Shown here: positions 34,120 through 64,000 of the stretch, piece by piece
Layout of the letters: each line of letters opens with the position of its first letter
Numbering within the stretch: the first letter of the stretch is position 1
Source of the DNA: a virus
Taxonomy: Duplodnaviria; Caudoviricetes
Virus record (IMG/VR): IMGVR_UViG_2828164553_000001
Span: 32,001-96,000 of that record
Strand: one strand, 5' to 3'
DNA length: 64,000 bases
Notes under the pieces: model-generated
Told to the model about the DNA's origin: nothing
Database searches by the model: none
Seen by the model: only the letters and a program-made list of their open reading frames with translations
Made by a program: the position numbers and the translations under genes

Positions 34120-34361
34120 GCAAGGCAAGCAAGGATTCGATGGAACGCCTGCATGGCGCCATCGCAGACAAGCTGAGCGACACCATCGAGAACATGGAGG
34201 CAGGCGACAAGGGACTGGCCGCGTTACTGAACGTGGCCCGCCAATTCCTCAAGGACAATGGCATCGACTCCGTGGCAACTGAGACCAATCCGGTTGGCAA
34301 GGTAGCCGAGGCAGTCTCGAAGCATCCCTTCGATCCCTCCGAGAGCCTGAAGCACCACTGA
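34116..34361 (+). CDS. Terminase small subunit (gp18-like)
   Basis: LH...LLNVARQFLKDNGI; precedes the large subunit. Confidence 0.85.
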   Translation: MSKASKDSMERLHGAIADKLSDTIENMEAGDKGLAALLNVARQFLKDNGIDSVATETNPVGKVAEAVSKHPFDPSESLKHH

Positions 34362-36040
34362 TGGGGGCGTCGGGGATTACTTCCCTGCACGTCATCCACC
34401 CCTGGGAGGACTTCCGTAACTTCGCGTTCGACCTCTGGACGCATCTGGCCCTGCCGTCGCCAACGCCCGTGCAGTACGACATCTGTTCGTACCTCCAGCA
34501 CGGGCCGCGGCGCCGCATGGTCCAGGCGTTCCGAGGCGTGGGCAAGTCATTCCTCACGGCTGGATACGTGTGCTGGCTTCTCTGGAAAGACCCGCAGCAC
34601 AAGATCATGGTGGTCTCGGCGAGCAAGGAGCGCGCTGACGCGTTCTCGGTGTTCGTTAAACAGATCATCGAGACCTTCGAGCCGCTGTCGCACCTGCGCC
34701 CCCGCAGCGACCAGCGCAACTCCAACCTGGCCTTCGACGTTGGCCCTGCCCTCCCCGACCAATCGCCTTCGGTGAAGTCGGTAGGCATCACAGGCCAGCT
34801 TACCGGCTCGCGCGCTAACACGATTATTCCCGATGACATCGAGGTCGTGAAGAACTCGCAGACCATCGTGCAGCGAGAGAAGCTCGCAGAACTCATCAAG
34901 GAGTTCGATGCGGTACTGAAGCCAGGTGGACAGGTGATCTACCTCGGCACGCCACAGACCGAAGAGTCGCTCTACAACAAGCTGCCGGAACGCGGGTACG
35001 ACATCCGCATTTGGCCCGCACGCTTTCCGAAGGACATGAAGCAGCGCGTCGCATACGGCGCCATGCTCGCTCCAGTGATCGCGGCGGCGTTCGACGACAA
35101 TCAGGCCCTCGCCTGGACGCCGACCGACTCCAGGCGCTTCGACGAGAAGGACCTGATGGAGCGCGAAGCGTCCTACGGACGTGCTGGTTTCGCTCTGCAG
35201 TTCATGCTGGACACCACGCTATCTGACGCTGAGAAGTATCCGCTCAAGCTGTCGGACTTCATCGTCATGGACGTTGATCGCGAGGTCGCGCCGATCCGTG
35301 TCGTGTGGTCCTCCGGTAAACAGCAGGTGGTCGAGGAATTGCCCTCCGTGGGCTTTTCGGGCGACCGCTGGCACCAGCCGATGTACGTGGCTCCCGAGAT
35401 GGAAGAGTTCACCGGATCGCTGATGACCGTCGATCCGTCCGGACGGGGCGGCGACGAGACGGGCTTCTGCGTCACCAAAGTTCTGCGCGGCATGATTTAC
35501 CTGCGCCGCTCGGGCGGCTTCAAGGGCGGCTACGAGGACTCCACGCTGGAGGGCTTAGCGCACATTGCGCGCGCAGAGAAGGTCCAGCTAATCCTTGTCG
35601 AATCAAACTTCGGCGACGGCATGTTCAACAAGCTGTTCGAGCCGGTTCTGAAGCGGATCTACCCGTGCTCCGTCGAGGAAATCAAACACTCAACGCAGAA
35701 GGAGCGCCGAATCTGCGACACCATCGAGCCGGTTTTGAACCAGCATCGCCTGGTCGTGGACAAGGCCGTAATCCGCGCCGACGCGGACACCGAAAACCAC
35801 CACTACCAACTGTTCCACCAACTCTCCCGAATGACCCGCGACCGCGGCGCCGTCAAGCACGACGACCGCGTGGAACCGCTCGCAATGGCACTCGCGTACT
35901 GGGCCGACCAGCTTGCACGCAATGTTGAAGACGAAGAGTCGCGGCGCATGGAGGAACTGCAAGAACAGGACTACCTCGACTTCATCCAATCGGTCACTGG
36001 CCGTGCGGTGGACGAGGCGAACTTCTACGACAACTACTAA
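34361..36040 (+). CDS. Terminase large subunit (gp19)
   Basis: QAFRGVGKS, GQLTGSRA, LGTPQ, VDPSGRGGDETG, HDDR motifs. Confidence 0.97.
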   Translation: MGASGITSLHVIHPWEDFRNFAFDLWTHLALPSPTPVQYDICSYLQHGPRRRMVQAFRGVGKSFLTAGYVCWLLWKDPQHKIMVVSASKERADAFSVFVKQIIETFEPLSHLRPRSDQRNSNLAFDVGPALPDQSPSVKSVGITGQLTGSRANTIIPDDIEVVKNSQTIVQREKLAELIKEFDAVLKPGGQVIYLGTPQTEESLYNKLPERGYDIRIWPARFPKDMKQRVAYGAMLAPVIAAAFDDNQALAWTPTDSRRFDEKDLMEREASYGRAGFALQFMLDTTLSDAEKYPLKLSDFIVMDVDREVAPIRVVWSSGKQQVVEELPSVGFSGDRWHQPMYVAPEMEEFTGSLMTVDPSGRGGDETGFCVTKVLRGMIYLRRSGGFKGGYEDSTLEGLAHIARAEKVQLILVESNFGDGMFNKLFEPVLKRIYPCSVEEIKHSTQKERRICDTIEPVLNQHRLVVDKAVIRADADTENHHYQLFHQLSRMTRDRGAVKHDDRVEPLAMALAYWADQLARNVEDEESRRMEELQEQDYLDFIQSVTGRAVDEANFYDNY

Positions 36041-36053
36041 CCAAGGAACCACC

Positions 36054-36209
36054 ATGACCGAGTTTTTAATCACTGCCGCCGTCTTCCTGGCGTTCGGCCT
36101 GTTTATCCGTAACCGCATCCGCAAGGCCAAGGCAGCGTCCGCATCTTCGGCCGGCGCACCTGTCGGCGGCGGCTCCACTGGCACCAAGCCGCACACGCAG
36201 GTTCGTTGA
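36054..36209 (+). CDS. Small single-TM protein
   Basis: AAGGA RBS; MTEFLITAAVFLAFGLFIRNRIRK. Confidence 0.6.
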   Translation: MTEFLITAAVFLAFGLFIRNRIRKAKAASASSAGAPVGGGSTGTKPHTQVR

Positions 36210-36655
36210 GCGAATCCATCCGCATCGCAACCCCGCTCACCAAGGTGAGCGAGGGTTTGCGCCTTCGGGCATATGTGTGCCCGGCCGGCAAGCTAACTAT
36301 CGGATGGGGCCACACCGGCACCGACGTGAAGCCAAGTATGACGATCACCCCGGAGCGCGCTGAGCAGCTCCTGGAGGCCGACTTAAAGCGCGCCCTGGCA
36401 GGCGTAAGGGAGCACGTGCGCGTGCCTCTCAAAGCGCACCAGGAGGCCGCTCTCGTGGATTTCGTATTCAATCTGGGCGCAGAGCGGCTACGCACATCTA
36501 CCCTGCTGCGTCTGCTGAACTCTGGAAACTACACGGCAGTGTCCGCACAGCTGACCCGCTGGGTGTATGGCACGGTCAACGGAAAGAGCCGCAAGCTGCC
36601 CGGGCTGATCACCCGACGCGCCGCGAACGTGGCGATGTGGGAAACCAATTCTTGA
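36206..36655 (+). CDS. Endolysin (GH24 lysozyme)
   Basis: EG.RL.AY.CPAG..TIGWGHT catalytic motif, FNLG, GLITRR. Confidence 0.92.
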   Translation: MSESIRIATPLTKVSEGLRLRAYVCPAGKLTIGWGHTGTDVKPSMTITPERAEQLLEADLKRALAGVREHVRVPLKAHQEAALVDFVFNLGAERLRTSTLLRLLNSGNYTAVSAQLTRWVYGTVNGKSRKLPGLITRRAANVAMWETNS

Positions 36656-37631: not shown

Positions 37632-37835
37632 CTATTCGATACCGCGCAGGGCCTTGGCTTCAGCTAGGTAGGCGTCTTTTTCCGGCGATGGCGGCTGTTT
37701 GCGTACCAAGTTGATGGTCGCGGCAGATGCTGAAATGGCGTCAGTGGTCGAGGTTGGGCGCAGGGACTGCAAAAGACCCTTAAGTACGTCACGCTGAGCA
37801 TTGAGGCGGGCTTCCAGTTCGGTGATCGTGGGCAT
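37632..37835 (-). CDS. Hypothetical protein
   Basis: AAGGA RBS on the minus strand; 67 aa. Confidence 0.55.
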   Translation of the reverse strand: MPTITELEARLNAQRDVLKGLLQSLRPTSTTDAISASAATINLVRKQPPSPEKDAYLAEAKALRGIE

Positions 37836-37884
37836 CGGGTCGTCCTTAGGGTCGAAATGTTTGGCGGAGATTTCCTTGAGGGTA

Positions 37885-38121
37885 TCTGACTCCGAAACGT
37901 CGCGCGAATCCCCCCTCCAGGGGGTCGCAGTGTGCCGCGATTCTTCTCTTCGACGGCCTGCTGCGGCTCTGCCGTCCCTCTCTGCGTCACCTGTCGCCCT
38001 AAGCCGTTGAATTGAAGCGCCCCGCGCTGGATTCCCTATCCAGACGCCACCCAGACCTCAGGCGATAGCGCACGCCTGGTGCGCTCCAGCCGTCCGCGTG
38101 TGTTCGCGTCTGTCTTTCCCT
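37885..38121 (+). other. Predicted direct terminal repeat (single copy in the prophage)
   Basis: TA|TCTGAC...TCCCCCC-TCCA-GGGGGT at the start and TCCCT|ATCTGT at the end mirror the T7 terminal-repeat boundaries as I recall them. Confidence 0.55.
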
Positions 38122-38303
38122 ATCTGTCGTTTTGCTTCTGACCATAGGCGGACACCTGCCGAGCACTTACGGCCCTGCCCTGCCCATGCATAGCCCTTGG
38201 CGCATATCCCAGCAGCCAGCGCGCTAGATGCCCACCCATCTAACACCGACCGGCCGCGGTCAGCGCTCTACCTATTCGTGCGTTCTCTCACATATTTCGT
38301 TAT

Positions 38304-38348
38304 ATCCCGAGATTGGGACTTGACCCGATCATGGAATTGATCTAGCTT
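38304..38348 (+). promoter_or_regulatory. Early sigma70 promoter 1 with adjacent operator
   Basis: ATCCCGAGATTGGGAC (38304-19) abuts TTGACC-17-TAGCTT. Confidence 0.7.
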
Positions 38349-38354
38349 ATATCC

Positions 38355-38570
38355 CATCGGCCAGCCACACCGGCCGGCGCGATCCCTGAGCCGCCCAGCG
38401 CGGCGCTAAGAGAAGCAATCGGATTCAACCGGCCCCAGCCCGTGCAATGCGCTACTGGGGCGGCCTTCAAGGGCCTGCGACTACGCCGAGAGGCAACCGC
38501 AGGGGAACCGAAAGAGGCCAAGGCGGCTAGAGGCCGCACGGTTCCGGGGTGCTCTCAGGCATAGCCGCAA
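38355..38570 (+). ncRNA. Candidate structured non-coding RNA 1
   Basis: Closing stem CCTGAG/CTCAGG encloses several hairpins; no credible ORF. Confidence 0.5.
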
Positions 38571-38571
38571 C

Positions 38572-38622
38572 ATCCCAACATTGGGAAATAACTTGACAAC
38601 GGGACGATTCCAGATTTAGGAT
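38572..38622 (+). promoter_or_regulatory. Early sigma70 promoter 2 with two operators
   Basis: ATCCCAACATTGGGAA, TTGACA-18-TAGGAT, and ATTCCAGATTTAGGAT overlapping the -10. Confidence 0.75.
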
Positions 38623-38628
38623 ATGTCC

Positions 38629-38925
38629 CACGGTCGCTGAGGCGGCCAGCTGGCAAAGCGGGAAGCTCTCCCGTCGCATTCCGACCCTTGCACGGGGTCG
38701 TAAATAACACGGTGCGGCTGGACCAGCTAAGGCGCGATGAGGCGTCGTTGCGGGAAGTCCGGGACGGGAATGGCTATGCCTTCGCCCACCCACATGACGA
38801 CCCCTCAACGACAGCGGAGCGGCACTGGCCCGAAACCGGCACGGCCTGACAATCCTGCACACCGCAGGAGAGTCGGGCCACTCAAGCGCCTCAGCAACAC
38901 GGGGGTGTTTGAGTGGCTTGATTCA
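38629..38925 (+). ncRNA. Candidate structured non-coding RNA / leader 2
   Basis: 9-bp closing stem GCTGAGGCG/CGCCTCAGC, internal hairpins, and an alternative 16-bp hairpin before the RBS. Confidence 0.5.
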
Positions 38926-38937
38926 CTGGAGAACCCG

Positions 38938-39090
38938 ATGGAACACGATGCGATCCCCTACGTTGCACCCGACGACCGCTTGATGGACACCGTGAGGTGG
39001 GAGCTGGCGTGCTACCGGACGAGTATCGGCCGTACTGAAGCTTTGTCCATTGCATCCCACATCTGGCACAAATCCCACGAAGGAGCGTGA
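38938..39090 (+). CDS. Early small hypothetical protein
   Basis: GGAG RBS; MEHDAIPYVAPDD... Confidence 0.55.
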   Translation: MEHDAIPYVAPDDRLMDTVRWELACYRTSIGRTEALSIASHIWHKSHEGA

Positions 39091-39091
39091 C

Positions 39092-39289
39092 ATGACTAGG
39101 CATAAGGAAGCGCACCACAGAAGAGTTCAAGCCGGCATGGGGAGGCCGGCAAGAAGAGCGCAGTACACCTGCCTGCGCGTCGTTGGCCGTTGGGTGCTGC
39201 GGCACCACGGCCTTGCGGTTGGCATCTATCCAACTCTGGGCGCACTTGTGGCGGCCCGGATCGAACACGAGGGACGCACTCATGGCTGA
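39092..39289 (+). CDS. Early hypothetical protein
   Basis: AAGGAG RBS. Confidence 0.55.
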   Translation: MTRHKEAHHRRVQAGMGRPARRAQYTCLRVVGRWVLRHHGLAVGIYPTLGALVAARIEHEGRTHG

Positions 39290-39518
39290 GCACGACGGGA
39301 TCACTGAGGGGCTGGAGTGCGACAACGCCGCAGTCATGGCCGGCTTCACTCGCGAAATATTCGCCAGGACAACGACGCTCGATCTGCACCTATTGATCCG
39401 CCCCGACACTGATTTAGACGGACACTTCCGCGCCTGGTGCACTGACGAGCAGGAGTGGCTGCGGATCGGGGGGTGGAACTTCTGCATTCAGGACGTAAAC
39501 TCTGGAGCGTCCGCATGA
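39282..39518 (+). CDS. Early hypothetical protein
   Basis: GAGGG RBS; ATGA coupling. Confidence 0.6.
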   Translation: MAEHDGITEGLECDNAAVMAGFTREIFARTTTLDLHLLIRPDTDLDGHFRAWCTDEQEWLRIGGWNFCIQDVNSGASA

Positions 39519-39676
39519 TCGAGGAGGACGCTTTGAAGCTCACCAAGCTGCGCGCTGAGATTCGCAAACTCAACCGCGAGTCGGACAAGCTGATGCTTGA
39601 GACTCGCTGGTATCCGATGGTCGTCACCACGGCGCTGTTCGCAGCGGTCGCGGCGGTCATCAAGTTGTTCGGCTGA
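39515..39676 (+). CDS. Early small coiled-coil/TM protein
   Basis: GGAG RBS; C-terminal hydrophobic helix. Confidence 0.6.
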   Translation: MIEEDALKLTKLRAEIRKLNRESDKLMLETRWYPMVVTTALFAAVAAVIKLFG

Positions 39677-39821
39677 ATGCCTGAAGTACCAGCGGGAGCG
39701 CTGCCCTAGCGCTACACCGGATGGGCTGCCTACGGCCCGGTGGCTGGTGAGTAAATCCTAGCAACCAGGTAAGCACCCGCACATCACTGGACGACGCGCC
39801 GCGCTGTCCGAAAATTCCCAC

Positions 39822-39844
39822 AAGCCGCCTCCGGGCGGTTTTTT
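39822..39844 (+). terminator. Intrinsic terminator in the early region
   Basis: AAGCCGCC-TCCG-GGCGGTT followed by a T-tract. Confidence 0.75.
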
Positions 39845-39864: not shown

Positions 39865-40053
39865 ATGACATCGCACCAAAGCATCATCGACCGCGATATT
39901 GAGCAATACGAAAGCGACGTAGAGCACCACTCAATGGCGCTCCTGCGCTGTCCGAACGGTCAGGAGTGGCTGCACCGCCGCCGGAGGGATGCGGCCGCGT
40001 CAGCCGCAAGCGCGCTGCGGACGTACCGCGAAGCGCTGAAGGCCACCGCATGA
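39865..40053 (+). CDS. Early hypothetical protein
   Basis: GGAG RBS; ATGA overlap with ardA. Confidence 0.55.
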   Translation: MTSHQSIIDRDIEQYESDVEHHSMALLRCPNGQEWLHRRRRDAAASAASALRTYREALKATA

Positions 40054-40676
40054 GCAATCCACGCATCTACGTGGCCTGCCTGGCCTCCTACAACAATGGC
40101 GTCCTGCATGGGCGCTGGATCGAACTGGACGGGATGGACGCCGACGACGTGCAGGCGGAGATTGCCGCGATGCTGCGCGAGTCGCCACACCCGAACGTGA
40201 CCGCGGAGTGCCCGGAGTGCGAGGGCAGCGGCGACGCCGCCCCTGATCGTCCAGCGGGAGTCCCGCCGCTGTGCGCAATATGCAACGGCACCGGCAAGGT
40301 GCCAAGCGCTGAGGAATGGGCCGTCCATGACAGCGAAGACCTGCCGACCAGCTTCCGGGACACCGAACACCCCGACCTGTCCGCTTTGATGGAACGACTG
40401 GAGGAGCTGGAAGACCTCAGTGATGACGAACGCGAAGCCTTCGATGCCTTCTGCGAGGTCGAGGGGGAAGAGGACGTGGATACGTTCCGCGAGCGTTACA
40501 TCGGCGAGTTCAACAGCTGGGCGGAGATGGCCGAGCACCACGCGGACGAAACTGCGCTTCTTGAGGACGTCCCCGAGAACCTGCGGCGCTACTTCGATTA
40601 CGAAAGCTACGGCCGTGACATGCGGGCGGGGGGCGAGGCCTACGAATCGCACGGCCACTACTTCTGGAGCCACTGA
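40050..40676 (+). CDS. ardA: ArdA antirestriction protein with inserted CxxCxGxG zinc finger
   Basis: IYVACLASYNNG.L.G.W, EEWAVHD, YFDYESYGRD motifs; highly acidic. Confidence 0.88.
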   Translation: MSNPRIYVACLASYNNGVLHGRWIELDGMDADDVQAEIAAMLRESPHPNVTAECPECEGSGDAAPDRPAGVPPLCAICNGTGKVPSAEEWAVHDSEDLPTSFRDTEHPDLSALMERLEELEDLSDDEREAFDAFCEVEGEEDVDTFRERYIGEFNSWAEMAEHHADETALLEDVPENLRRYFDYESYGRDMRAGGEAYESHGHYFWSH

Positions 40677-45059: not shown

Positions 45060-46322
45060 ATGCCGTTACGACTTAAGGGCACAGCCCCCCGACCCGGGGA
45101 GGCTGACCGTCGCTATTACATGATCGACGTGCAGGTGGAAAAGCGCCGGGAGCGACTATCCGCCGGAACTCGCGACAAGAACCTCGCGCTCCGTAAGGAG
45201 CAGAACATCATCGACGCGCTACGTGACGATCCTGAAGTCACTACGCTGGAACTCAAACGCATCCTCCGGGGCGAGCGTCTTGCCGCCATCCAGGATCGCC
45301 GCAGCGAAGATCGGGCCTGGACGCTGAAAGAAGCGTGCGACAAGTGCCTCAAGGACCGCGAGGACGGTGGCTGGGGTGCGGCGTCCTCCAACGACACCTA
45401 CGCAACTAACTGCCGCATGATCCAGAAATTCCTGGGAGCGGACACGCCGGTTGCCTTCATCGATCAAGAAAAGATTCGCGACCTTGCAGACCATCTCCTC
45501 GACGAAGAGGAGAACGCGCCTGCCACGGTAAACCGCAAGCTCTTCGCGCTGATGCACGTCTTGGCTTACGCCAAGCAGCACAAGCAGTACCCGAAGGAGC
45601 TCCCCAAGTGGAAACCGCACAAGGAAGGCGACAACGCTCGCCAGTTCGTGCTGACCGCGGAAGACGAGCGGGTGATATTCGATGCAATCGCCAAGCTCGA
45701 CGACCGACCGGACAACCCGCTCGGCGGCAACCAGGTCTCGCGCGACGCTGCGGACTTCGTTGACTGCTTTACCTTCTTGGCGGACGTTGGCTGCCGCTTC
45801 TCTCAGGCGCTGAAAGTGCGCTGGCGGGACATCGACTGGGACCTTATGCCGGGCGTCGTAGGCATCAAGTTCTGGCGCAAGGGAGAGCAGAAAGGAGGGA
45901 GGGTTCGCACTATTCCCTGCACATCCCGCGTGGTCGATGTACTCAAGCGGCGACGGGCGCTGGGAGGAGATGGCCCATTCTCGGGACTGCGCAGGCAGCG
46001 AGGCACCGAGCTATGGAACATGGCAAAAGCAAGGACCAACCTGGCTAGGGAAGAAGAGTGCGTTCCCCACTGCTTGCGGCACACGTGCGCAACCCGCTTG
46101 CTTGCTCGTACGGGCGACCTGAAGTTGGTTCAAGAATGGCTCGGACACACCAAGATTGAGACCACGGCGGCCATCTACGCGAAGGTGTTGGTGGACACAA
46201 AAGTGCGAGCGCTGAGTGCACTGCAAGACGGGTGGAATGGCGCGTCACCTATCCCAGATGTGGGAACAATCCAGGACTGCAACCTATCCCAACATCGGGA
46301 CGACCCGACAGTAACCCAGTGA
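45060..46322 (+). CDS. int: Tyrosine integrase of the T7-like prophage
   Basis: GCR, KGG, HCLRH, LGH and IY catalytic motifs; adjacent to att. Confidence 0.95.
   Translation: MPLRLKGTAPRPGEADRRYYMIDVQVEKRRERLSAGTRDKNLALRKEQNIIDALRDDPEVTTLELKRILRGERLAAIQDRRSEDRAWTLKEACDKCLKDREDGGWGAASSNDTYATNCRMIQKFLGADTPVAFIDQEKIRDLADHLLDEEENAPATVNRKLFALMHVLAYAKQHKQYPKELPKWKPHKEGDNARQFVLTAEDERVIFDAIAKLDDRPDNPLGGNQVSRDAADFVDCFTFLADVGCRFSQALKVRWRDIDWDLMPGVVGIKFWRKGEQKGGRVRTIPCTSRVVDVLKRRRALGGDGPFSGLRRQRGTELWNMAKARTNLAREEECVPHCLRHTCATRLLARTGDLKLVQEWLGHTKIETTAAIYAKVLVDTKVRALSALQDGWNGASPIPDVGTIQDCNLSQHRDDPTVTQ
46251..46301. promoter_or_regulatory. Two palindromic operators in the integrase 3' end
   Basis: ATCCCAGATGTGGGAA (46251-66) and ATCCCAACATCGGGAC (46286-301). 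Confidence 0.65.
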
Positions 46323-46353: not shown

Positions 46354-46406
46354 ATCAGTGGGGTGGCTGAGGGGACTCGAACCCCCGACATCTGGAATCA
46401 CAATCC
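46354..46406. repeat. att site (right) of the T7-like prophage
   Basis: Identical to 2689..2741. Confidence 0.95.
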
Positions 46407-46436
46407 AGTACTCTAACCAGCTGAGCTACAGCCACC
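46359..46436 (-). tRNA. tRNA-His(GTG)
   Basis: Reverse complement GGTGGCTGTAGCTCAGCTGGTTAGAGTACTGGATTGTGATTCCAGATGTCGGGGGTTCGAGTCCCCTCAGCCACCCCA, including G-1. Confidence 0.97.
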
Positions 46437-49844: not shown

Positions 49845-50671
49845 CAGTCATTTAAAATTACACTCGCTTGCTCTTCACCGGCATGCACTTCGCTAGCAGA
49901 CATCGTTGACCTCAAGCGATCCAGTGACCCCAATCTAGTCCCGGGAACTTTGGCTTGGGCGGCTTTGTAATATGCGTAAGAACTCACATCATTCTTTGGC
50001 GCTAATATCCCGTCATCATATATTTCGCCGAGCCGCATCATTGCATCAATACTCCCAGCTGACGCGGATTCCGCCAGATATGTAACAGCCTCACGCTTAT
50101 ACTTCGTTATCCGCTGAGGATCTCTGATCATGTCAGTTGCATTGCCGACGATTGCCTCAGAGTCGGTGGCGAACAGAAGGCGAGCTTGAATGCTGCCATT
50201 TCGCGCTGCGGCCGCAAGCCAATCTCCTCTATTAGATAGAGACTCTTTCGTAATACCGTGACAATCAGCGAGTTGTTTGGAAATCGCTTCCTCCAATCTC
50301 TCCGGACCGATCCCAGCAGATGCGTATGCTTTCATCTCATCGTCGGAAAGCTGATTGGACATAGCCTGGAAACACTCATTGGCCTTTAGATAAATTCCAA
50401 AAGCAGCTTCGGCGTTGCCCTCTTGCGCTGCGCCCTCAAGCCTTTTCAGAACTTGCTCATAGGAGCCAGCTGGAACTTCCACCGAATTAATCTCGATAGA
50501 CGATCCAGCCACCGGAGCATTCCTTCTAGACTTAATCAAAACCGCCGAAGGTGCTTCTGAATGTCTACCTTTTGAGCCGTCAGATCGATCGTAAAAATTC
50601 GGAATGATCAGCGCACCAATAAGAACAGCAGCAATAACGCATGCCGCTAGCAAGTATCCTTTTTTTCTCAT
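49832..50671 (-). CDS. Membrane-anchored Sel1-like repeat protein (moron)
   Basis: N-terminal TM; AAQEGNAEAA, WLAAAARNGSIQA, ASAGSIDAMMRLGEIY..G repeats. Confidence 0.75.
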   Translation of the reverse strand: MRKKGYLLAACVIAAVLIGALIIPNFYDRSDGSKGRHSEAPSAVLIKSRRNAPVAGSSIEINSVEVPAGSYEQVLKRLEGAAQEGNAEAAFGIYLKANECFQAMSNQLSDDEMKAYASAGIGPERLEEAISKQLADCHGITKESLSNRGDWLAAAARNGSIQARLLFATDSEAIVGNATDMIRDPQRITKYKREAVTYLAESASAGSIDAMMRLGEIYDDGILAPKNDVSSYAYYKAAQAKVPGTRLGSLDRLRSTMSASEVHAGEEQASVILNDCCSH

Positions 50672-50858
50672 CCTTGCCCCCTACGCCCTTCCATCGAGCA
50701 AAAAAATACATTAGTAAAAAAATTCTGGACCACGCCCCAACCGAACACGACCGCAGCATACATACAAATGGTCCGAGGACGCAATCACAGCCTGCGGACT
50801 GGGATTCGCTCGGTCATGAGTTGCATAGAAAACGCCTGACACACCCGTGTTGAAATGG

Positions 50859-51650
50859 TCAGAAGAGAACTGCCTCGCTATCGACCCAAGATTTAATGAT
50901 GAGCTCCCGCGCCAAACTGCGTGATGCATGTCCTCCAATTGTGTAATGAAGCTGGAGAGGAACGATAGAGAATTCCTCGAACGTGCTTCTAATGGCAGGA
51001 TGATCGTTTAGCGATACAACACACTTGCCGCGACACGACCGCATTAGTTCTGCCATTCGCTCGTACTCACTGAAAGGGAAATCGACACCGTATCCTTCGG
51101 TCTGCCAGTACGGTGGATCAAGGTAGAACAGCGTTTCAGGCCGATCGTAGCGAGCAACACATTCGTGCCATGGCAGCCGCTCAATGACTACATTGGCCAG
51201 GCGCAGGTGCACTGCACTCAGTTCCTCCTCAATGCGCAGCAGGTTCAGTCGCGGCCCCACACCGCTGTCCACCAAACCGAAGGTCTGCCCTTCAACCTTG
51301 CCACCGAACGCCAGCTTCTGCAGGTAGTAGAACCGGGCAGCGCGTTGGATGTCGGTCAAGGTCTCAGGTCGCTCCATCTGTGCCCACTCGAACATCTCGC
51401 GCGACACCAGCGACCAGCGGAACATACGCACGAATTCGTCGAGGTGATGCCGCACGCAGCGGTACAGGCAGACCAGATCGCTATTGATGTCGTTGAGCAC
51501 CTCCAGTGGTGCTGGACGTGGCCGCATCAAGAGCGCGGCCGCGCCGCCGGCGAAGGCTTCGACATAGGTCTGGTGGGCCGGAAAGTGGGGATAGAGGTGT
51601 TTGATCAGGCGGCGCTTGCCGCCCGGCCAGGGAATCATGGGTCGGGTCAT
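50859..51650 (-). CDS. DNA adenine methyltransferase (Dam/D12 class)
   Basis: WPGGK, EAFAGG, LNDIN, YLDPPY motifs. Confidence 0.93.
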   Translation of the reverse strand: MTRPMIPWPGGKRRLIKHLYPHFPAHQTYVEAFAGGAAALLMRPRPAPLEVLNDINSDLVCLYRCVRHHLDEFVRMFRWSLVSREMFEWAQMERPETLTDIQRAARFYYLQKLAFGGKVEGQTFGLVDSGVGPRLNLLRIEEELSAVHLRLANVVIERLPWHECVARYDRPETLFYLDPPYWQTEGYGVDFPFSEYERMAELMRSCRGKCVVSLNDHPAIRSTFEEFSIVPLQLHYTIGGHASRSLARELIIKSWVDSEAVLF

Positions 51651-51789
51651 TGGGTTCTCAGCATTTGCGATGTCGGTAGCCGACACTGCGCCCGCTCTCG
51701 CGAGGGCGCAGGGTCTAGGCCAATGCCAGGTGGTGAGAACACCTGTGTTGCGGCGCTGGACGTGCAGTGACAGCTGCACGTCCAGCGCC
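51651..51789 (-). promoter_or_regulatory. Structured 5' leader of the methyltransferase gene
   Basis: 16-bp perfect hairpin at 51752-51789, further stems, and pairing to the region just before the start codon. Confidence 0.5.
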
Positions 51790-51794
51790 CTGTT

Positions 51795-52448
51795 TTAGGC
51801 TTCTGCCAATTGCTCGGCGGGCGCAAGGCTTGCGGAAATGGCGGCGTTGGTCGCAGCCTTGATGAGTGACTGCAGCTTCCATCCCTGCAGCTTCTGTGAC
51901 GTTGGAGCGCCGGGATATTGGATCACGTATTCGGGCGCAACCAGGGCAGCGATCGATTCGGCCAAGACCCCCAGGGTAGCGCCTCGGTCCTCCACCTGGA
52001 AGGTCACATTTCCAGTGTCGTTGATTGGGTTCCAGATGATGGTGATATACCGCGCAATCGGATCCGCGTCGGGATCGGGCACCACCACGTTTGCATCGTA
52101 GGCGGTGCGCGTGGCTGCTTTGATGCCGAGCAGCAGGTGCACGCCAGGCTCGTTGACCGTTTCCCCTGGCACCTGCCCCGCCTGCCCCGTTGCGGGGTCG
52201 ACCTGAGTGGTCGAGGGCGCGGTGATGTCGTAGCTGCGACCGATCAGGTCGCTGATCTGCACGGTGAGCACGCGCAGGAAGAAACGCTCGAGCGTCTGCG
52301 TCCAGCCATCGGGGTGCGGCTTGGTTGTGATCTGCTCGAGGTGGAACTCGACCGGCCCGTCGTTGGTGGCCGGGTTCCATCGGATCTCGATGCGTGGCGA
52401 CACGATCTTGGTCTGCGTGCCAAAGGTGGTGTTCTCGTTGATGAGCAT
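51795..52448 (-). CDS. Tail-associated hypothetical protein with internal duplication
   Basis: Follows the tail-tip genes; IRWNP/IIWNP and IKAAT each occur twice. Confidence 0.65.
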   Translation of the reverse strand: MLINENTTFGTQTKIVSPRIEIRWNPATNDGPVEFHLEQITTKPHPDGWTQTLERFFLRVLTVQISDLIGRSYDITAPSTTQVDPATGQAGQVPGETVNEPGVHLLLGIKAATRTAYDANVVVPDPDADPIARYITIIWNPINDTGNVTFQVEDRGATLGVLAESIAALVAPEYVIQYPGAPTSQKLQGWKLQSLIKAATNAAISASLAPAEQLAEA

Positions 52449-52450
52449 GG

Positions 52451-53128
52451 TCAATATCCAGTGACGTCGAGGATGGGCGCGCGCACCCAGGCCTGACCGT
52501 AATTGCCAGGGGGTGGCTGCGGGGTACCGCTGGTGCCGCTGCGCAGGTCCTGGGCAGTGTCGACGGTGGCAATGGACGCGACGTTGCCGTTGATGTTGAC
52601 CACTCCCTTGCGCCACAGGACCTGCACCTGCCACTGGGGGCCGCCACCGATCACGCCGCCGATGGCCAGCATGATGTTGCCGGTGGAGCCGGCCAGCGCG
52701 GCGTAGGTGCGGCCGGCCGGCAGCGTGATCGATCCGCCCTGATTCGCATTGCCCTGCAGCAACCCACGCACCTTCATGTACTTGAGTGTTGCGTCGAACA
52801 CGATCTGATTGTTCGACGGGTTGCGCACGACAAGGTAGTTGCGCTGCCCGAAGTTGGGCTCATCGAACACATAGGCGGTGAAGCTGCCGCCGGACGTCCA
52901 TCCGGAGAACGTGAAGGTGTTGCCGCTTTGCGTGCGCTGGCCGAGTGTCGCGTTGCTCTCTCCCAAGAAGGCCAGCACGGGGTTCGTGCCGGCCACGGTA
53001 AGGCTCCACGTCTTCAGCACGCCGCTGCCGCTGGGCGTAATGGTCTGCTTCGAAGCGAGGGCTAGATTCTTCCAGTCCTCAGAGATCACCACCCTATTGG
53101 GACCGGCATTGATGCGAACGAATGCCAC
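52451..53128 (-). CDS. Tail-tip accessory protein
   Basis: Beta-rich; YVFD and VFDA..KYMKV motifs; downstream of J. Confidence 0.7.
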   Translation of the reverse strand: MAFVRINAGPNRVVISEDWKNLALASKQTITPSGSGVLKTWSLTVAGTNPVLAFLGESNATLGQRTQSGNTFTFSGWTSGGSFTAYVFDEPNFGQRNYLVVRNPSNNQIVFDATLKYMKVRGLLQGNANQGGSITLPAGRTYAALAGSTGNIMLAIGGVIGGGPQWQVQVLWRKGVVNINGNVASIATVDTAQDLRSGTSGTPQPPPGNYGQAWVRAPILDVTGY

Positions 53129-53129
53129 G

Positions 53130-53441
53130 TCAAAACCTCCCGTAGAACAACGTGCCGCCGGCCCGGGCAGTCAAGTTCGCAGACGGCGCGCTCCAGGTGA
53201 TCGTGTTGCCGTCATCCGTGATGTATGGCAGCAGCGCATTGCCTGCCCCGCTATCGGCGACAAACCAGTAATAGAGTTGGTTTGCGCTGCCGGTGATCGG
53301 TACCGCCACTGAGCCGTTGGCTCCGCTGGCAATACCGATCGCGCCCATGTGCTGGGTGAGCAAGTCCGAGTCCGGTTGATCTGTGACTTCGAGAAGCACG
53401 ACATTCGTGGCTGCGTCTCGGACGCGTAGAAACGTCGTCAT
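53130..53441 (-). CDS. Tail-tip accessory protein
   Basis: GNTITWS...FYGRF; ATGA overlap with J. Confidence 0.7.
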   Translation of the reverse strand: MTTFLRVRDAATNVVLLEVTDQPDSDLLTQHMGAIGIASGANGSVAVPITGSANQLYYWFVADSGAGNALLPYITDDGNTITWSAPSANLTARAGGTLFYGRF

Positions 53442-56400
53442 ACGCCCGCTCCCATCGCGATCACTTGCACACCATTAGGGGCGTAGCAGTAGATCTTGCC
53501 GTTGACGATCTCACTGCGACCTTGTCCTCTGTCGACGTCAATGAACCGCACCTTGTCGAATGCAAAATCCAACGTTGCGCTCGTCCCGTTGTTGACCGAA
53601 CGCCAGCCGGCCACGCGATTGTTGACGTCCAGCGCAAGCGTAGCTGAGGCCTCATAGCTCCTGACCCCGTTCTCCGCGGTGGTCACGCGCGTCTCGATCG
53701 ATTGCGTGACCTGCGCATATTTGAGGTCCAGTCCCGCAGCTGAAGGCTGCCAACTTGACGGCACCGTTTGCGCCGGGCCCAGCTCCTCTAACATCGGTCG
53801 GACAAACCAGCTGTAGAGGTATGGTGCGGATGCTTTCCCCGATGAAAGCAGCTGCATCCTCGCGAAGGCTGCGTCACTCGGCGCAACACCGCTGGCAAAG
53901 GCGCGGATGTATTCGTTAAGCGTGATGCCGCCCGCGATGGACACCCAGTGGATTGGTGCTATACCGACTTCTTGCCCAGATCTGTTAGCCCAAACCAGTC
54001 GCACGGACACCTGCTCTGCTGTATGGCTTGCCATCCAACATGAGGCGCCGTACCGCTTGCCCGGCGTCACTGGTACATCTCGGCTTTGCACGAACACGTA
54101 GCCACTGGCACCACTGCTCTTGTAGAGCTGTAGATAAGCCATTCCAATCGGCTGCCAGCTATTGTTTAGCGTGGCAACTCCGCGCTCCAGCAATGTGCCA
54201 CCCCACGGGTCACTCACGATGCCCCAGCCATCCAACGATGTGTCCCAGCCGGCGTTGTAGAGCAGGTTGGCTCCCCCTCCGGTTTGCGAGCGAACGGAGG
54301 TCAATGCCGTGCCGAGCGACGTCACCTCATTGCCCTGTTGCGTGACCTGAGTCTGCAGCGCTTGCAAAGCGGATGCGTCAGCCTTGCCGCTCAGTGCGGA
54401 TTGAACCGAACCGATGAGCTGCGACAGTGCGTTTACGCCGTTTTCTGCTTGCGTCAAACGGGTGTTCATCGCCTGCACGGCAGATGTGTCTGCCTTTCCT
54501 GCGAGGCTGGACTGCACCCCGCGCACATCCTGCGCGACGATCTGCAACTCTCGCTCGATCTGCTGCACGTCGGTGGTGACCTGCTGCATTGCCACGCCGA
54601 TCGCGCCCACCGCTTCGGCCAAGCTCGCGTACTGCCCGATGAAAGACCAATACGCCGTGTCGGTGATCGCCGTGCCCACCGGCACGTCCTGCTTGGCCAC
54701 ATAGAGCCCGCCGGCGTGCTTTACGATCGAGCCGGCCGGCCACGCTTGGTCCGCCCACTCCGGAGCCTCGACAAGCGCCTGCAGGTTCGCCAAGTCCTGC
54801 GCCTGTTGAAAGAGCTTGTCAGCGAGCTCTTGATCGCGCGCCGCCGCTTCCAGAAAACCCTGCCGGATCTCTTCGGTGGTCTGATCGATCGCCTGCTGCA
54901 TCTCCTCCTGCAGCTCCGCCAGATTCTTGCCGAGGGTCTTTGTGATGTACTTCGCCGCCACCGACAGCGTGCCGTTGGTGTTGCGCGCGCGGATCGCGAA
55001 GACCCACGTGCCCGACGCCGGGATGGGCGAGTCGAACGCACCGGTGTGGTAGCCGCTATCGCCCACGGGCGTCATGGCCTCCCACGACGGCATCGGCGCA
55101 CCCTGCTCCGGTGCCTGGGTGTAGCGGATCTCCGCGCCGGCCAAGTTGGCCGACTGGATGGTGTCGGTCCAGAAGCCCCAGGTGTAGCGCCGGATGCCGC
55201 CGCCGACCTCCTCCACGTCGAACAGGTCGTAGTTCACCGGCGGCGCATCGGCGCCGATGGTCGTGTAGATCAGCGAGGCGCCCACGCCCAGCTGCCCCTC
55301 CGGGCCGAAAGGACGCACGTTGATGGTGTAGGTGCCGGCGCGCGGGATGCGCCACCGCGCCGTGCGGGTGCGCGTCTGTGCCACCTCTACCAGCTCGCCA
55401 TTGCCGTCCGACGCCGAGGCGTACACCACCGCGTGATCGAACGGGCCGGTGATGTCGAAGGTGGCCACCAGATCGGTGGCAGTGACATCGCCGGTGGTGA
55501 TCTGGTCTTCGCTGATTGCCAGGTTGCTGACGATTGGGCGTGTGGCCAGCGACGAGCCGCTCTCCGGCGGGATGTATCGGCCGGTCTTGACGAAGGTCCA
55601 GAACTCCGGCGACTCCGGCACCACGCTGATGCTGGCGCCCTTCAGATCGCTCTCCGGCTCGATCGCCACCACGCGCACACGCAGCCCCGGCGTGGCCTTG
55701 AAATCGTAGATCCACACGGTGTCGTGGGCTGGGTTGTCCTGCCAGCCGCCCTGCACCATTGAGTCTGCATAGCCCTCGCCTGGCAGCGGTGCGTCATCCG
55801 GCCATTCCTCGACCAGCTGGATGGTGTCGGTCGCCTCGGTGAAGTTGCGCACACGGAACGTGCGATAGACCGCCTCACCCGGGATGCGCAGGCCGATAAA
55901 GGCGCTGCGCGCATCTGGCGGCGGCACAGGCTCGTCCAGTGTCAGCGTGACGGTGCCAAGTAGCGGGCTGCGCTCTGCCGCGACGATGCGCCCGCCGAAT
56001 CCCCACTGCGTGAGGTCGTGCGAGATCGACAGCATCGACATGCGACGGTAGGACAGGTACTGCAGATCTTGCGCAAAGCCGATGTCCTTGTACTGAAACA
56101 GGCTCTGGGCGAGGTGGTAGCGCGCCATCTCGGCCGCATGCGCCTCGCGGCCGATGCCCTCACCGGTGAGACGCGCCGGGTTGAGCATGGTTTCCACGCC
56201 CGGCGCCGGCACGCGTAAGGTCTCGACTTTCTTGGTGGTGCTGTCGAAATAGCTGTACTCGATGCCGTCAGCAGCGGCGGCCAGCGTGTAGTCCACGCTG
56301 AAGCTGCCCTTCTTCATCTCGGCCATGTTGACCACGCCCGAGAGCGGCTGCTCGTCGGCGGCCCACACCACCGACAGGCGACCACTGGCCCAGGTGGTCT

Positions 56401-57886
56401 GCCCCATGCCAGCAAGGGCAATCGCCTGCAGCACCTCGTCGTGGCTGCGCTCTTCGGTCAGCCAATAGTCGTAGGTGTAGCCGTTCGCTTCGCAGTGCGC
56501 CATGAAGCCCTGCAACGACTCGATGTCGGTCTCCTCGTCGCTCTTGCCCATGCCGGCGATGAGCTTGCCGGTCTTGTCGTAATAGCCGCGAACGTACTTG
56601 AGAATGTGCGCGCCGGGGTTGCTGGTCTCCTCATTTACCCAGCTGCCGTTGCGACATACCGGAATCGGCGCGGCGATGTGCTCGGCACGCAGCTCATCCG
56701 GCTGGCCGTTGAGCTGGCCGGTGGCCTTCATCAAGATGCCGGTGCGCGCAATTCCCGCATAAGTCGCAGTGTCCGCCTGCACGCTGCCCATCGTCGACCA
56801 CTGAAAGTCGTTGCGCTGGGTGTTATCGCCCTCGTAGTTTCCCTGCCCCAGGATGCGCACGCGCACGTCGTATTGGCCCTTGGCCACATCTGCCGACACC
56901 GTTGCGCGCTTGCTGACGTCCAGCTTGTCGCCGGTGTACGTCTGGGTGGCCAGCGTGGCCCAGATCCCGGTGCCCGCGGGCGCGTACTGCACTTGCACGG
57001 TCTCGGACACGTTGTACTTCTTGCCCGAGGTGCCCACGCCGCCGAGCACGTACTCCAGGTTGATCTGGATGCGCACGGTGTCGGCGCTGGTGGTGCGGGT
57101 CACGAAGTCGGCCGTGTCCGGCAGCTCCCCACCATCGACTGTGTCCACGTTGCTGTACAGCGGAATGGTCTGCTCCGGCATCTGGCTGTAGCCGGCGTGG
57201 TAGATGCTCACGCCCTCATAGCTGGAGAGCGGTGTGTCGCCGTTGCTGTACGCCTCCACGCGCCCGACGCCAATACCGGGCGTGAGCACCATGGCGAGGT
57301 ACTGATCATCACCCTCGTAAAAGGTGTAAGGCTTACTCGCAATGTCTGCCGCGATGGTCGTGCGACCAAACAGCAAGCCCAGGGGCTCATAGGGGCGCAT
57401 GCGGTTGCGCGGCGCCCCCAGGCTGTAGACGGTGCCCGCCGCGCTCTGGGCGGCTGGGCTTTCGACCTTCGGCCCGAGGGTCTTGTTGATCAGGACTGAG
57501 CCGGCCACAAAGGCTGCCGTGTACGCGACCGCCGCGCCCGTGGTACCCAGCCCGGCGGCCCACGTCGCGCCCGCGCCGCCGGTGAAGTAGATCAGCGCCG
57601 CCATCGCCACGATATACAGCGCGTTTCTGCCGACCGCGCCGCGCACCTCGATGACCTGACCATCCTTCGGATAAACGTAGGCCCACAGGTGACGCGGCAC
57701 GACGCGCCCGCCGATGGAAACCGTCCACTCGCCCTGATCCAGGTCGATCACGTGCCGGTGCAGGAAGTCGCACAGGCGCTCGCCCGGCTGCAGGTCCATT
57801 GCAATGTGGCGCTGTCCCTCCAGCGTCACTGGATGCGGCGTCAGCACCAGCTGGCCGTCGCTCGCAGGCGTGGTCATCAGACCCAT
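53438..57886 (-). CDS. Tail tip / central fibre protein J (with I-like N-terminus)
   Basis: 1482 aa; TSNP, FN3-like region, coiled coil, and a carbohydrate-binding-like NLLYNAGW domain. Confidence 0.9.
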   Translation of the reverse strand: MGLMTTPASDGQLVLTPHPVTLEGQRHIAMDLQPGERLCDFLHRHVIDLDQGEWTVSIGGRVVPRHLWAYVYPKDGQVIEVRGAVGRNALYIVAMAALIYFTGGAGATWAAGLGTTGAAVAYTAAFVAGSVLINKTLGPKVESPAAQSAAGTVYSLGAPRNRMRPYEPLGLLFGRTTIAADIASKPYTFYEGDDQYLAMVLTPGIGVGRVEAYSNGDTPLSSYEGVSIYHAGYSQMPEQTIPLYSNVDTVDGGELPDTADFVTRTTSADTVRIQINLEYVLGGVGTSGKKYNVSETVQVQYAPAGTGIWATLATQTYTGDKLDVSKRATVSADVAKGQYDVRVRILGQGNYEGDNTQRNDFQWSTMGSVQADTATYAGIARTGILMKATGQLNGQPDELRAEHIAAPIPVCRNGSWVNEETSNPGAHILKYVRGYYDKTGKLIAGMGKSDEETDIESLQGFMAHCEANGYTYDYWLTEERSHDEVLQAIALAGMGQTTWASGRLSVVWAADEQPLSGVVNMAEMKKGSFSVDYTLAAAADGIEYSYFDSTTKKVETLRVPAPGVETMLNPARLTGEGIGREAHAAEMARYHLAQSLFQYKDIGFAQDLQYLSYRRMSMLSISHDLTQWGFGGRIVAAERSPLLGTVTLTLDEPVPPPDARSAFIGLRIPGEAVYRTFRVRNFTEATDTIQLVEEWPDDAPLPGEGYADSMVQGGWQDNPAHDTVWIYDFKATPGLRVRVVAIEPESDLKGASISVVPESPEFWTFVKTGRYIPPESGSSLATRPIVSNLAISEDQITTGDVTATDLVATFDITGPFDHAVVYASASDGNGELVEVAQTRTRTARWRIPRAGTYTINVRPFGPEGQLGVGASLIYTTIGADAPPVNYDLFDVEEVGGGIRRYTWGFWTDTIQSANLAGAEIRYTQAPEQGAPMPSWEAMTPVGDSGYHTGAFDSPIPASGTWVFAIRARNTNGTLSVAAKYITKTLGKNLAELQEEMQQAIDQTTEEIRQGFLEAAARDQELADKLFQQAQDLANLQALVEAPEWADQAWPAGSIVKHAGGLYVAKQDVPVGTAITDTAYWSFIGQYASLAEAVGAIGVAMQQVTTDVQQIERELQIVAQDVRGVQSSLAGKADTSAVQAMNTRLTQAENGVNALSQLIGSVQSALSGKADASALQALQTQVTQQGNEVTSLGTALTSVRSQTGGGANLLYNAGWDTSLDGWGIVSDPWGGTLLERGVATLNNSWQPIGMAYLQLYKSSGASGYVFVQSRDVPVTPGKRYGASCWMASHTAEQVSVRLVWANRSGQEVGIAPIHWVSIAGGITLNEYIRAFASGVAPSDAAFARMQLLSSGKASAPYLYSWFVRPMLEELGPAQTVPSSWQPSAAGLDLKYAQVTQSIETRVTTAENGVRSYEASATLALDVNNRVAGWRSVNNGTSATLDFAFDKVRFIDVDRGQGRSEIVNGKIYCYAPNGVQVIAMGAGV

Positions 57887-58269
57887 GTGTAATACCCCTC
57901 GATCCGTGCGCCGTAATCCGGCAGCTCGCGCACCCGGTGCAGCCAGCTGCTACCGAGCGCGCTGGTTGTGTGAAGTACCCAGCCCTCGTGGGCCAGGTAG
58001 AAGAAGACACCGACGTGCCCGGGCCGGATTTGGCCCTTATCGAACATCAACACCAGGTCGCCGTCCGCCGGCGTGTCGGTTGGCACGGCGTACGCCTGGG
58101 ACAGCTCGCCCAGGGCTGCCTGGCCAGCAGCACCACGCGGGCGCCGCGCTGGCATCTGCACCTGGCGACCGAACAGCTGGCGCTGGACCTGCACCACCAG
58201 GTCGGCACAGTCGTAGGCGTGGGCGTCGTACGGGATGTTGAGGAACCGCTCTACCTCACTGGCCCGCAT
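57877..58269 (-). CDS. NlpC/P60 tail protein (K-like)
   Basis: PY...YDCADL, GDLVL, HVGV, LH motifs. Confidence 0.85.
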   Translation of the reverse strand: MRASEVERFLNIPYDAHAYDCADLVVQVQRQLFGRQVQMPARRPRGAAGQAALGELSQAYAVPTDTPADGDLVLMFDKGQIRPGHVGVFFYLAHEGWVLHTTSALGSSWLHRVRELPDYGARIEGYYTWV

Positions 58270-58736
58270 CAGAAGATCCCCGGCAGCGTGTGCGGGTTGG
58301 CGCGGAGCTTCACTGCCTGCTGCCGCATGAAGAAGTCCACGCCGATCTGCGCGGTGATCAGCGGGCCGGCAGCGCGCACCTGCGTCAGCGGCAGATAGAA
58401 ACGCCGCGCAATCACGTCTGGCTGCGCGCGGTCCGTGATCAGGATCCGGCACATCACCGTCTCGTTGGGCTGCACATGCTCCAGGTCATCGGTAATGCCG
58501 CGCCCAACGTTGTCCACCTCCAGCTGTGCGCGCGGCGTCTGGCCAGCAGAATCCGTAGGGGGCGTGAAGCGGAACGGATACCCGAGATACGTATTGCCAT
58601 TGCTCACCCAGTCCTGCGTGTCGTTGGCAATGCGCAACACCGCGCCGAACGATGGCGCCGTCATCTCCAGCAGCTCCAGCGGGCCGGTGGTGGCATTGTC
58701 TGTCACGCGCTGGCGGCGCTCAAGGAAGGAGCTCAT
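58269..58736 (-). CDS. Minor tail protein (DUF1833/L-like)
   Basis: YPFRFTPP...LEVDNV, PGIF end; position. Confidence 0.8.
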   Translation of the reverse strand: MSSFLERRQRVTDNATTGPLELLEMTAPSFGAVLRIANDTQDWVSNGNTYLGYPFRFTPPTDSAGQTPRAQLEVDNVGRGITDDLEHVQPNETVMCRILITDRAQPDVIARRFYLPLTQVRAAGPLITAQIGVDFFMRQQAVKLRANPHTLPGIF

Positions 58737-63162: not shown

Positions 63163-63192
63163 GGGTGCTCCTCGTAGGTGCCGCGTGCGGCG

Positions 63193-63943: not shown

Positions 63944-64000
63944 GCCTGCACCTTCTCAATCGCGCTGCGGATCGCCTTGTCCAGCTCGCGGTTGAAGTAG
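63940..64000 (-). CDS. C-terminus of tail completion (Z-like) protein, truncated by window
   Basis: ...YFNRELDKAIRSAIEKVQA* with ATGA overlap. Confidence 0.5.
   Translation of the reverse strand, partial: YFNRELDKAIRSAIEKVQA

Follow-up and report, generated by a model that had tools for sequence, protein, structure and literature searches.

In a temperate T7-like phage, what does a long structured leader do at what would be the head of the first early operon? The question is raised by RNA 2, the whole untranslated leader of about 309 nucleotides (38629–38937, + strand) that lies between promoter P2 and the first early gene in a viral stretch of 64,000 nucleotides (positions 32,001 to 96,000 of IMG/VR record IMGVR_UViG_2828164553_000001; hereafter the window). 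To our knowledge, temperate T7-like phages have been recognised only recently, and their early control is little understood. An earlier note, made from the sequence without database searches, had described at this place a large structured leader ahead of the first ribosome-binding site (RBS). Our results agree in that the RNA downstream of the early promoter is conserved, non-coding and strongly structured; the note had also given it mutually exclusive folds, which we redraw below.

The first 46 kb of the window, itself a piece of a 121-kb provirus record, are filled by a T7-like prophage of ~43.6 kb (limits ~2.75–46.36 kb; genome G+C, 61%) that is integrated in tRNA-His. The intact tRNA-His gene (46359–46435) lies at the integrase end of the prophage, and its 3' part is repeated (GGGGACTCGAACCCCCGAC, 2706–2724 and 46371–46389), the first copy within a region (2694–2745) that adjoins tRNA-Lys. 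Genes were identified for a single-subunit RNA polymerase (RNAP; 3102–5522), primase-helicase, family A DNA polymerase, portal and nozzle proteins, terminase (34361–36040), endolysin (36206–36655) and integrase (45060–46322). Since the prophage is bounded by tRNA-His, the interval from 38.3 to 42 kb corresponds to the left-end early region in the phage's own gene order, in which terminase and lysin are followed by two promoters, P1 and P2, and then by a packed early operon that includes an ArdA anti-restriction gene. The first gene of this operon has the Shine–Dalgarno (SD) sequence GGAGA (38928–38932, + strand), starts at ATG 38938, ends at 39090 and encodes 50 amino acids. Three more packed small genes (39092–39289, 39282–39518 and 39515–39676) are followed by a strong intrinsic terminator inside the operon (39822–39841), a further gene (39865–40053) and, downstream of the terminator, the ArdA gene (40050–40676), which carries an inserted CXXC-type zinc-finger-like segment with weak matches to Anti-TRAP and DnaJ-CXXCXGXG.

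A relative of the prophage, ~93–95% identical, is present in 20 RNA runs from seven studies, as contigs of 8–15 kb, each with a single depth value. One RNA-seq run contains a separate contig of 357 nt that covers 39473–39817, just before the terminator at 39822–41, with about five times the depth of its neighbours and with adapter sequence at 39473; the interval 39473–39841 ('element C') may be an abundant discrete RNA. Elsewhere in the window, a 19-bp hairpin with four G–U pairs (2776–2825), the second longest on the + strand of the prophage, lies just inside attL, with GTGACG words recurring in it; it could serve to process RNA upstream of the RNAP gene or, at the DNA level, as a target of recombination proteins. 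A search with DNA from beyond attR gave tRNA matches for the most part, the best match being 79%. A second prophage, lambda-like, on the minus strand and higher in G+C (65%), occupies ~50000–64000, with genes for a tape measure protein (59089–61725) and a tail tip protein J-like product (53438–57886).

Promoter P2 is of the sigma-70 type and lies on the + strand, with a –35 box TTGACA at 38593, a spacer of 18 nt and a –10 box TAGGAT at 38617 (to 38622); the two boxes match the consensus at 10 of 12 positions, and the transcript is predicted to start at ~38629–38630. The sequence of P2 is unchanged in eight close relatives, and an equivalent promoter is found, despite different flanks, in L008 (TTGACA-17-TAGATT), L022 (TTGACA-17-TAGGAT) and L015 (TTGACA-17-CATAAT). 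We infer that P2 is an active host promoter. Promoter P1, also of the sigma-70 type (–35 box at 38321), lies upstream of another structured unit, RNA 1 (38355–38570, between P1 and P2). A scan of the distant T7-like locus L011 found no equivalent promoters. Six nucleotides 5' of the –35 box of P2 lies the palindrome TCCCAACATTGGGA (38573–38586), which is kept in relatives and is likely to be an operator bound by a repressor. With at most one mismatch, TCCCA-N4-TGGGA occurs at seven sites in the window (2909, 5527, 38305, 38573, 39055, 46252 and 46287) against 1.8 expected; they accompany each of the two early promoters, flank the RNAP gene and also occur where the integrase gene ends, and together they are probably the operator set of one repressor. 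Upstream of the RNAP gene, the palindrome TCCCACATATGGGA is followed after 8 nt by the T7-type promoter-like GACCTCACTATAGAGGAG (2909–2948), and a terminator-like hairpin (~3036–3060) stands between GACCTCACTATAGAGGAG and the RNAP ATG at 3102.

The leader holds an open reading frame (ORF), 38737–39090, that could be read as an N-terminally extended first gene or, from AUG 38737, as the source of a short leader peptide. In the window, L002, L003 and L004, it stays open and shares the frame of the first gene, and 21-codon ORFs would arise in L022 and L015. In addition, an SD-like UAAGG and the AUG, within a small hairpin (38728–38739), are kept in four of five variants, with frames of 21–117 codons that encode no conserved protein. 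However, the frame is broken by 1-nt indels in L035, L005, L007 and L009, and the ORF from the homologous ATG has 117, 81, 37, 85 or 86 codons among the relatives. A motif search detects no ATG at the homologous motif in L022 and L015, where by eye an ATG in the same loop opens ~21 codons, and in L106 the AUG is lost (loop, GACGAA). The identical conserved nucleotides are read in other frames in L022, substitutions in RNA 2 show no third-position excess, and the ORF has no Pfam or PHROG match. The frame-breaking indels, the lost AUG and the lack of codon bias argue that the region is non-coding, although ribosomes could in principle initiate at the SD-like UAAGG and AUG; the untranslated character implied in the earlier note thus withstands the coding test, and we give a protein-coding role hardly any weight. 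All close relatives retain the 50-codon gene from ATG 38938 and its SD, and L008 retains the ORF. There, the homologue of the first gene (14547–14693, 48 amino acids) is without an ATG, GTG or TTG start and has an AUC after a strong SD, AAGGAGAGG.

As an RNA, the leader is strongly folded. The minimum free energy (MFE) of 38629–38940 is –142.6 kcal/mol, against a mean of –123.1 kcal/mol for shuffled sequences (z = –3.96; 0 of 100 shuffles did as well), and three sequence types have significant folds (z = –3.96 in the window, –4.39 and –3.08). The reverse strand of the region folds well too (z = –3.10); the abundance of G–U pairs and the promoter together assign the RNA to the + strand. Searches of Rfam 15 (riboswitches, RNase P, tmRNA, 6S and phage RNAs included) gave no match in the RNA 2 region at E up to 1 over 10 kb and, at E up to 10 over 661 nt, only a spurious match to a microRNA hairpin and no riboswitch class.

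From its 5' end, all on the + strand, the RNA begins with hairpin P1 (GGUCGC-UGAG-GCGGCC, 38632–38647), which has two covarying pairs, a C–G replaced by U–A in three sequences and a G–C replaced by A–U in L035; its equivalent in the L015 type covaries as well (GGUCGCA/UGCGGUC, GGCUGCA/UGCAGUC and GGCCGCA/UGCGGUC). Two hairpins follow that are present both in the MFE structure and in the alignment consensus fold, one (38657–75) with one compensatory change and several G–U changes and the other (38682–700) invariant and therefore uninformative on covariation. The central domain (38712–38842) is closed by helix P5 (GUGCGG 38712–17 / CCgGCAC 38836–42), which is kept with another sequence in L022 and the L015 type (GCGCCGG/CUGGCGaC, read from the sequences and present in their MFE folds). 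Within this domain, UAAGG and the small hairpin gCGC-GAUGAG-GCGu (38728–38745), which contains AUG 38737, precede a long irregular hairpin (38742–38815) with 5' strand GGGAAGUCCGGGACGGGAAUGG, tip GGC-UAU-GCC and 3' strand CCCACCCACAUGACGACCCC. The small hairpin covaries, with GCGC/GCGU in the window and L008 and GGCC/GGCC in L022, L015 and L106. The long hairpin is nearly invariant in the window, L008 and L022, its internal pairing being a prediction; L022 changes its tip to GGGGC-AUC-GCUCC and its base to GUAGG/CCUAC, and in the L015 type it is swapped entirely for an unrelated one. Past the central domain, the inner hairpin CCUGC-ACACC-GCAGG (38854–38868) covaries (CCCGC/GCGGG in L008, CAUGC/GCAUG in L015, a longer stem in L022). 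The alignment consensus fold also contained long-range core helices, one of which is contradicted by cross-type data that favour a local hairpin at 38732–45. As the interior of the core is nearly invariant, the core fold stays a prediction.

Mimicry of RNase P or of another host RNA was considered and rejected. Three RNase P-like words, GGAAAGUCCGGG in L022, GAAACCGGC and GGUGCGG...UAAG.GCGC, occur at sites 38751–38764, 38830–38842 and 38711–38736 of the window and 15189–15200 of L022; they are not colinear, and no RNase P model scores at E = 10. Their order differs from what we take to be the canonical succession, CR-I to CR-V, of bacterial RNase P.

The earlier note had enclosed the whole structure in a stem formed by the inverted repeat GCTGAGGCG (38636–44) and CGCCTCAGC (38887–95). 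All the words that it quoted are where it had placed them, and the closing words that it ascribed also to RNA 1 are present there (CCTGAG 38385–90 and CTCAGG 38554–59). The closing stem itself appears in the MFE fold, but covariation does not support it beyond the closest relatives: one compensatory change (L002) and wobbles in L003 and L004 stand against C·A mismatches in L007 and L009, and the stem is lost through decay in L008, has no counterpart in L022 and is lost in the L015 type. Two local hairpins that compete with it both covary. On alignment A2 (nine sequences), the locally folded model gives 98.4% paired cells and nine pairs changed on both sides, against 2.6 in shuffles, most of them in the 5' and 3' hairpins. 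Among the stems drawn inside the closing one, CGGGA/TCCCG, CGACCC/GGGTCG and CCTGC/GCAGG form in the MFE structure, whereas TGGCCCGA (38826–33) and TCGGGCCA (38873–80) do not pair in it; the two strands are complementary, yet their stem is not conserved, and relatives keep GGCCUGAC instead as the partner of 38872–79. In sum, covariation supports the 5' hairpin, the hairpin after UAAGG, the domain-closing helix and the 3' hairpin, and, as there are five variants only, it rests on few independent events.

We also rejected an interaction between the 5' and 3' ends as a feature of the family, because it is found in the window type (–28.8 kcal/mol) and the L015 type (–38.8 kcal/mol) with unrelated sequences and has no counterpart in L008 and L022. 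In the L015 type (15068–15083 with 15336–15349), a 5' tail, CCAUC..ACAACGG, complements the whole loop of the 3' hairpin, CCGUUGU-GAUGG, in a duplex of 12 bp (–38.8 kcal/mol) that is a possible pseudoknot and of which 5–6 bp are kept in L106.

The alternative hairpin of the earlier note, 38877–92 with 38902–17, is real and is part of a longer one. The 3' hairpin (38870–38924, + strand) has 23 uninterrupted pairs (38870–38892/38902–38924), six of them G–U and compatible with the + strand only, and a loop of 9 nt; it is the longest perfect + strand hairpin in the first 47 kb of the window and the longest in the prophage, and its helix ends 3 nt before the SD. Mutually exclusive folds do exist here, but the conserved alternative is another one than had been drawn, with 38872–79 paired either to 38843–50 or to 38915–22. 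Three segments on the + strand define it: segment 2 (GUCGGGCC, 38872–38879), the strand common to both alternative helices, pairs either with segment 1 (GGCCUGAC, 38843–38850) or with segment 3 (GGCUUGAU, 38915–38922), and the inner 13 pairs of the hairpin (38880–92/38902–14) form in both states. In 14 distinct sequences, all alignment cells of the segment 1:2 helix (100%) are paired, and two of its pairs have changed on both strands; for the 23-bp helix, which includes segment 2:3, these figures are 97.8% and eight pairs. On alignment A4, the segment 1:2 and 2:3 helices beat every shuffle, in paired cells and in covariation score, and all slid controls. Where L022 and the L015 type have G replaced by A in segment 2, both segment 1 and segment 3 have U in place of C. 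The segment 2:3 pairing is perfect in the window type and L022 and has one internal mismatch in L008 and in the L015 type. Forced folds of the two states differ by 0.8–4.2 kcal/mol in every type. As judged from the sequences, the 3' end of RNA 2 is thus bistable, conserved and next to the first RBS. Both SD and AUG lie outside the two alternative helices, and no U-tract follows the hairpin on its 3' side; as the SD is hidden in neither state, an effect on translation may be small.

Relatives were gathered from terminase-anchored IMG/VR loci, and gapped pattern scans added more. Homologues of RNA 2 occur, in five sequence variants, in related prophages only, some of which lie in Stenotrophomonas genomes. 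Seven close relatives are 86–98% identical in the RNA 2 region, and L008 is intermediate. L022 is a distant relative (nhmmer E = 1e-11; covariance model, 70.8 bits), and the L015 type, which keeps the scaffold with a different central hairpin, scores 28 bits (E ~2e-7). The gapped scans yielded copies in Stenotrophomonas maltophilia and S. sepilia and the variant L106, the named (Stenotrophomonas) copies being of the L015 type only; otherwise, pattern scans, exact and gapped, through collections of viruses, genomes and metagenomes led only to the same lineages. No cultured phage with RNA 2 was found, and a distant blastn search of 37800–39600 against 50,697 phage records, T7 included, gave no match. 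Model R1 has no match in more distant T7-like loci such as L011 and L026 and falls below threshold in two Stenotrophomonas genomes at whole-genome scale. It also detects no second copy in the window, with RNA 1 showing no detectable homology to RNA 2 on this model, and paralogy of the two was rejected.

RNA 2 is the most conserved part of the early region and is kept while early proteins are exchanged. Its core (38705–38855) is 97–99% identical in close relatives and 84–98% in L008. Between the window and L008, nucleotide identity is 89.6% in the RNA core and 84% in the terminase gene, and the downstream early genes are hardly alignable (~40–50%), so that the RNA core is conserved above the terminase gene and far above the early genes behind it. 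The first downstream gene varies between types, and the leader through GAUUCACUGGAGA is retained; GAUUCACUGGAGA is present in the L015 type too, before an unrelated first gene. Because the first gene varies, RNA 2 is not tied to one gene, and the pattern of conservation indicates that the constraint acts on the RNA, or on the RNA together with an RBS cassette, and not on a particular gene. RNA 1 is 95–99% conserved in close relatives and 56–80% in L008, and structured units stand at its place in L022 and L015.

RNA 2 is thus a representative of a small, previously undescribed family of ~300-nt structured RNAs in which a 5' hairpin is followed by a core of several helices, with a single conserved helix closing it, and by a 3' module of two states, the 3' helix of which is long enough to be an RNase III substrate. 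Our best reading, held tentatively, is that of an early leader processed by an RNase III-type enzyme, like T7 R0.3, with release of a stable structured RNA. Host RNA polymerase would transcribe the leader from operator-controlled P2, ~0.5 kb away from what is presumed to be the genome end. State A would have segment 2 paired with segment 1 and the 13-bp hairpin standing alone; in state B, segment 2 would pair with segment 3 and stack on the 13-bp hairpin to give the 23-bp helix, which would be the RNase III site and the counterpart of T7 R0.3. Once cleavage had parted leader and early mRNA, segment 2 would return to segment 1 and form with it a stable 3' hairpin on the released RNA, and segment 3 would be left single-stranded before the RBS, so that the first gene could be freely translated. 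The two folds would accordingly be the states before and after processing. Several observations speak for this leader model: a genome layout that matches T7 A1–A3 followed by gene 0.3, a promoter kept although its flanks differ, a non-coding region with a significant fold in three types, covariation in both helices of the 3' module with near-isoenergetic states, a 23-bp helix at the place of the T7 hairpin just before the SD of gene 0.3, and a core that outconserves terminase in an RNA independent of the identity of the first gene. Against it, the stem is perfect, unlike the bulged T7 sites, and has one segment 2:3 mismatch in L008 and the L015 type; neither state covers the SD itself; and a processing site alone leaves the near-invariant internal loops of the core unexplained. 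The very high conservation of the core suggests that the released RNA has a further job of its own.

It is conceivable, if unlikely, that RNA 2 is a new class of large phage regulatory RNA, with a core that senses or binds a small molecule or host factor within seconds after infection starts and a 3' module that decides on expression of the early operon, and so between lysis and lysogeny, or with an action in trans on host machinery or defence. Unlikely too is an early RNA that acts in trans, perhaps by titrating a host protein or a defence system as a decoy or sponge; its 5' and 3' hairpins would do no more than stabilise it, and translation downstream would be incidental. Such an RNA would be one of the earliest molecules to appear once the DNA has entered, before ArdA, its stable terminal hairpins and the extreme conservation at apparently unpaired positions would make sense, and it is compatible with release by processing. 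However, the most conserved 20-mer finds no complementary site in the window, the likeness to a host RNA was not upheld (the RNase P-like words are not colinear, and Rfam gave no match), and GGA-loop motifs are inconsistent between types. As a riboswitch-like sensor, the core would bind a metabolite, an ion or a host or phage protein, and segments 1, 2 and 3 would be the expression platform that sets how well the early operon is translated or how stable it is, and so influences lysis or lysogeny; to this belong the almost invariant loops, the conserved and nearly isoenergetic bistable module and a 5' untranslated position right behind a regulated promoter. We consider it improbable, given that no known riboswitch family was matched over 661 nt, even with E values up to 10, that SD and AUG are free of both helices with no terminator U-tract, and that the supposed aptamer hairpin is replaced as a whole in the L015 type while the platform stays.

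HK022 put and similar leader RNAs act on the transcribing polymerase, and a cis-acting antiterminator of this kind, with nascent RNA 2 modifying the polymerase for read-through of 39822–39841 to ArdA, the integrase and the RNAP gene, would account for a position directly behind an early promoter, for the second structured unit, RNA 1, behind P1, for the strong terminator inside the operon before the anti-restriction gene and for a core conserved independently of the genes downstream. This is quite improbable: no similarity to a described antiterminator RNA was detected, ~300 nt is much larger than put, and the RNA-seq contig of ~5x depth that ends near the terminator suggests termination there, a weak indication from one run. 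That RNA 2 is a functionless G+C-rich spacer with fortuitous stems, as the 61% G+C genome and the z of –3.10 for the reverse strand might suggest, is scarcely credible in view of conservation above terminase, compensatory changes in several helices and retention while neighbouring genes were exchanged.

RNA 2 is of interest because it would be among the first transcripts made as the genome enters the cell. If it is a processing site only, it carries the paradigm of T7 R0.3 over to a temperate lineage rich in G+C, and if the proposed processing is true, it offers a clean natural example of helix strands that re-pair after cleavage. If the core has a function of its own, RNA 2 is a phage RNA of a new kind that acts just as the infection of Stenotrophomonas-type hosts begins, of relevance to phage engineering and to lysogeny in the phages of such hosts.

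Compared with riboswitches and attenuators, RNA 2 shares a segment with two exclusive, evolutionarily maintained partners of near-equal energy, and differs in matching no known aptamer, in having no terminator U-tract and in an SD that is free in both states. With put it shares the position of a structured RNA, present as two copies or units, right behind early promoters and ahead of terminators that lie further downstream; it differs in having no detectable similarity, in being much larger and in its bistable 3' module beside the RBS. Closer in lifestyle is LUZ100, described as a temperate, integrase-bearing T7-like Pseudomonas phage with two conserved sigma-70 early promoters, P1 and P2, and with a MarR-type regulator proposed to bind sites flanking the phage promoter upstream of the RNAP gene (PMC10134795). 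The window shows at 2909–2948 the same layout as that proposed for LUZ100 phi1 and MarR (PMC10134795), whereas terminase identity is ~54% only. A term search of the LUZ100 paper found no mention of untranslated, sRNA, leader or RNase III (PMC10134795), and no RNA 2 homologue was found in the phage collection.

The nearest parallel remains T7 itself, the early precursor RNA of which is processed by RNase III (PMC4858673). In T7, promoters A1–A3 lie at 498–750 and gene 0.3 at 925. In both phages, tandem host-type promoters near the left genome end are followed by an untranslated leader of a few hundred nucleotides, a hairpin ends just 5' of the SD of the first gene, and the early operon carries an anti-restriction gene (Ocr in T7, ArdA here); a double helix of about two turns (23 bp) stands here immediately upstream of the first RBS. 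The promoters here have repressor-type operators, unlike those of T7, since the phage is temperate. In the distant blastn search, RNA 2 has no sequence similarity to the T7 leader or R0.3, and the T7 leader is weakly structured (z = –1.98, against about –4 here), whereas RNA 2 presents a perfect 23-bp stem within a conserved two-state module that follows a large, nearly invariant core. On this analysis, RNA 2 would seem best placed with the early leader and processing elements of the T7 type, as a new and more elaborate form.
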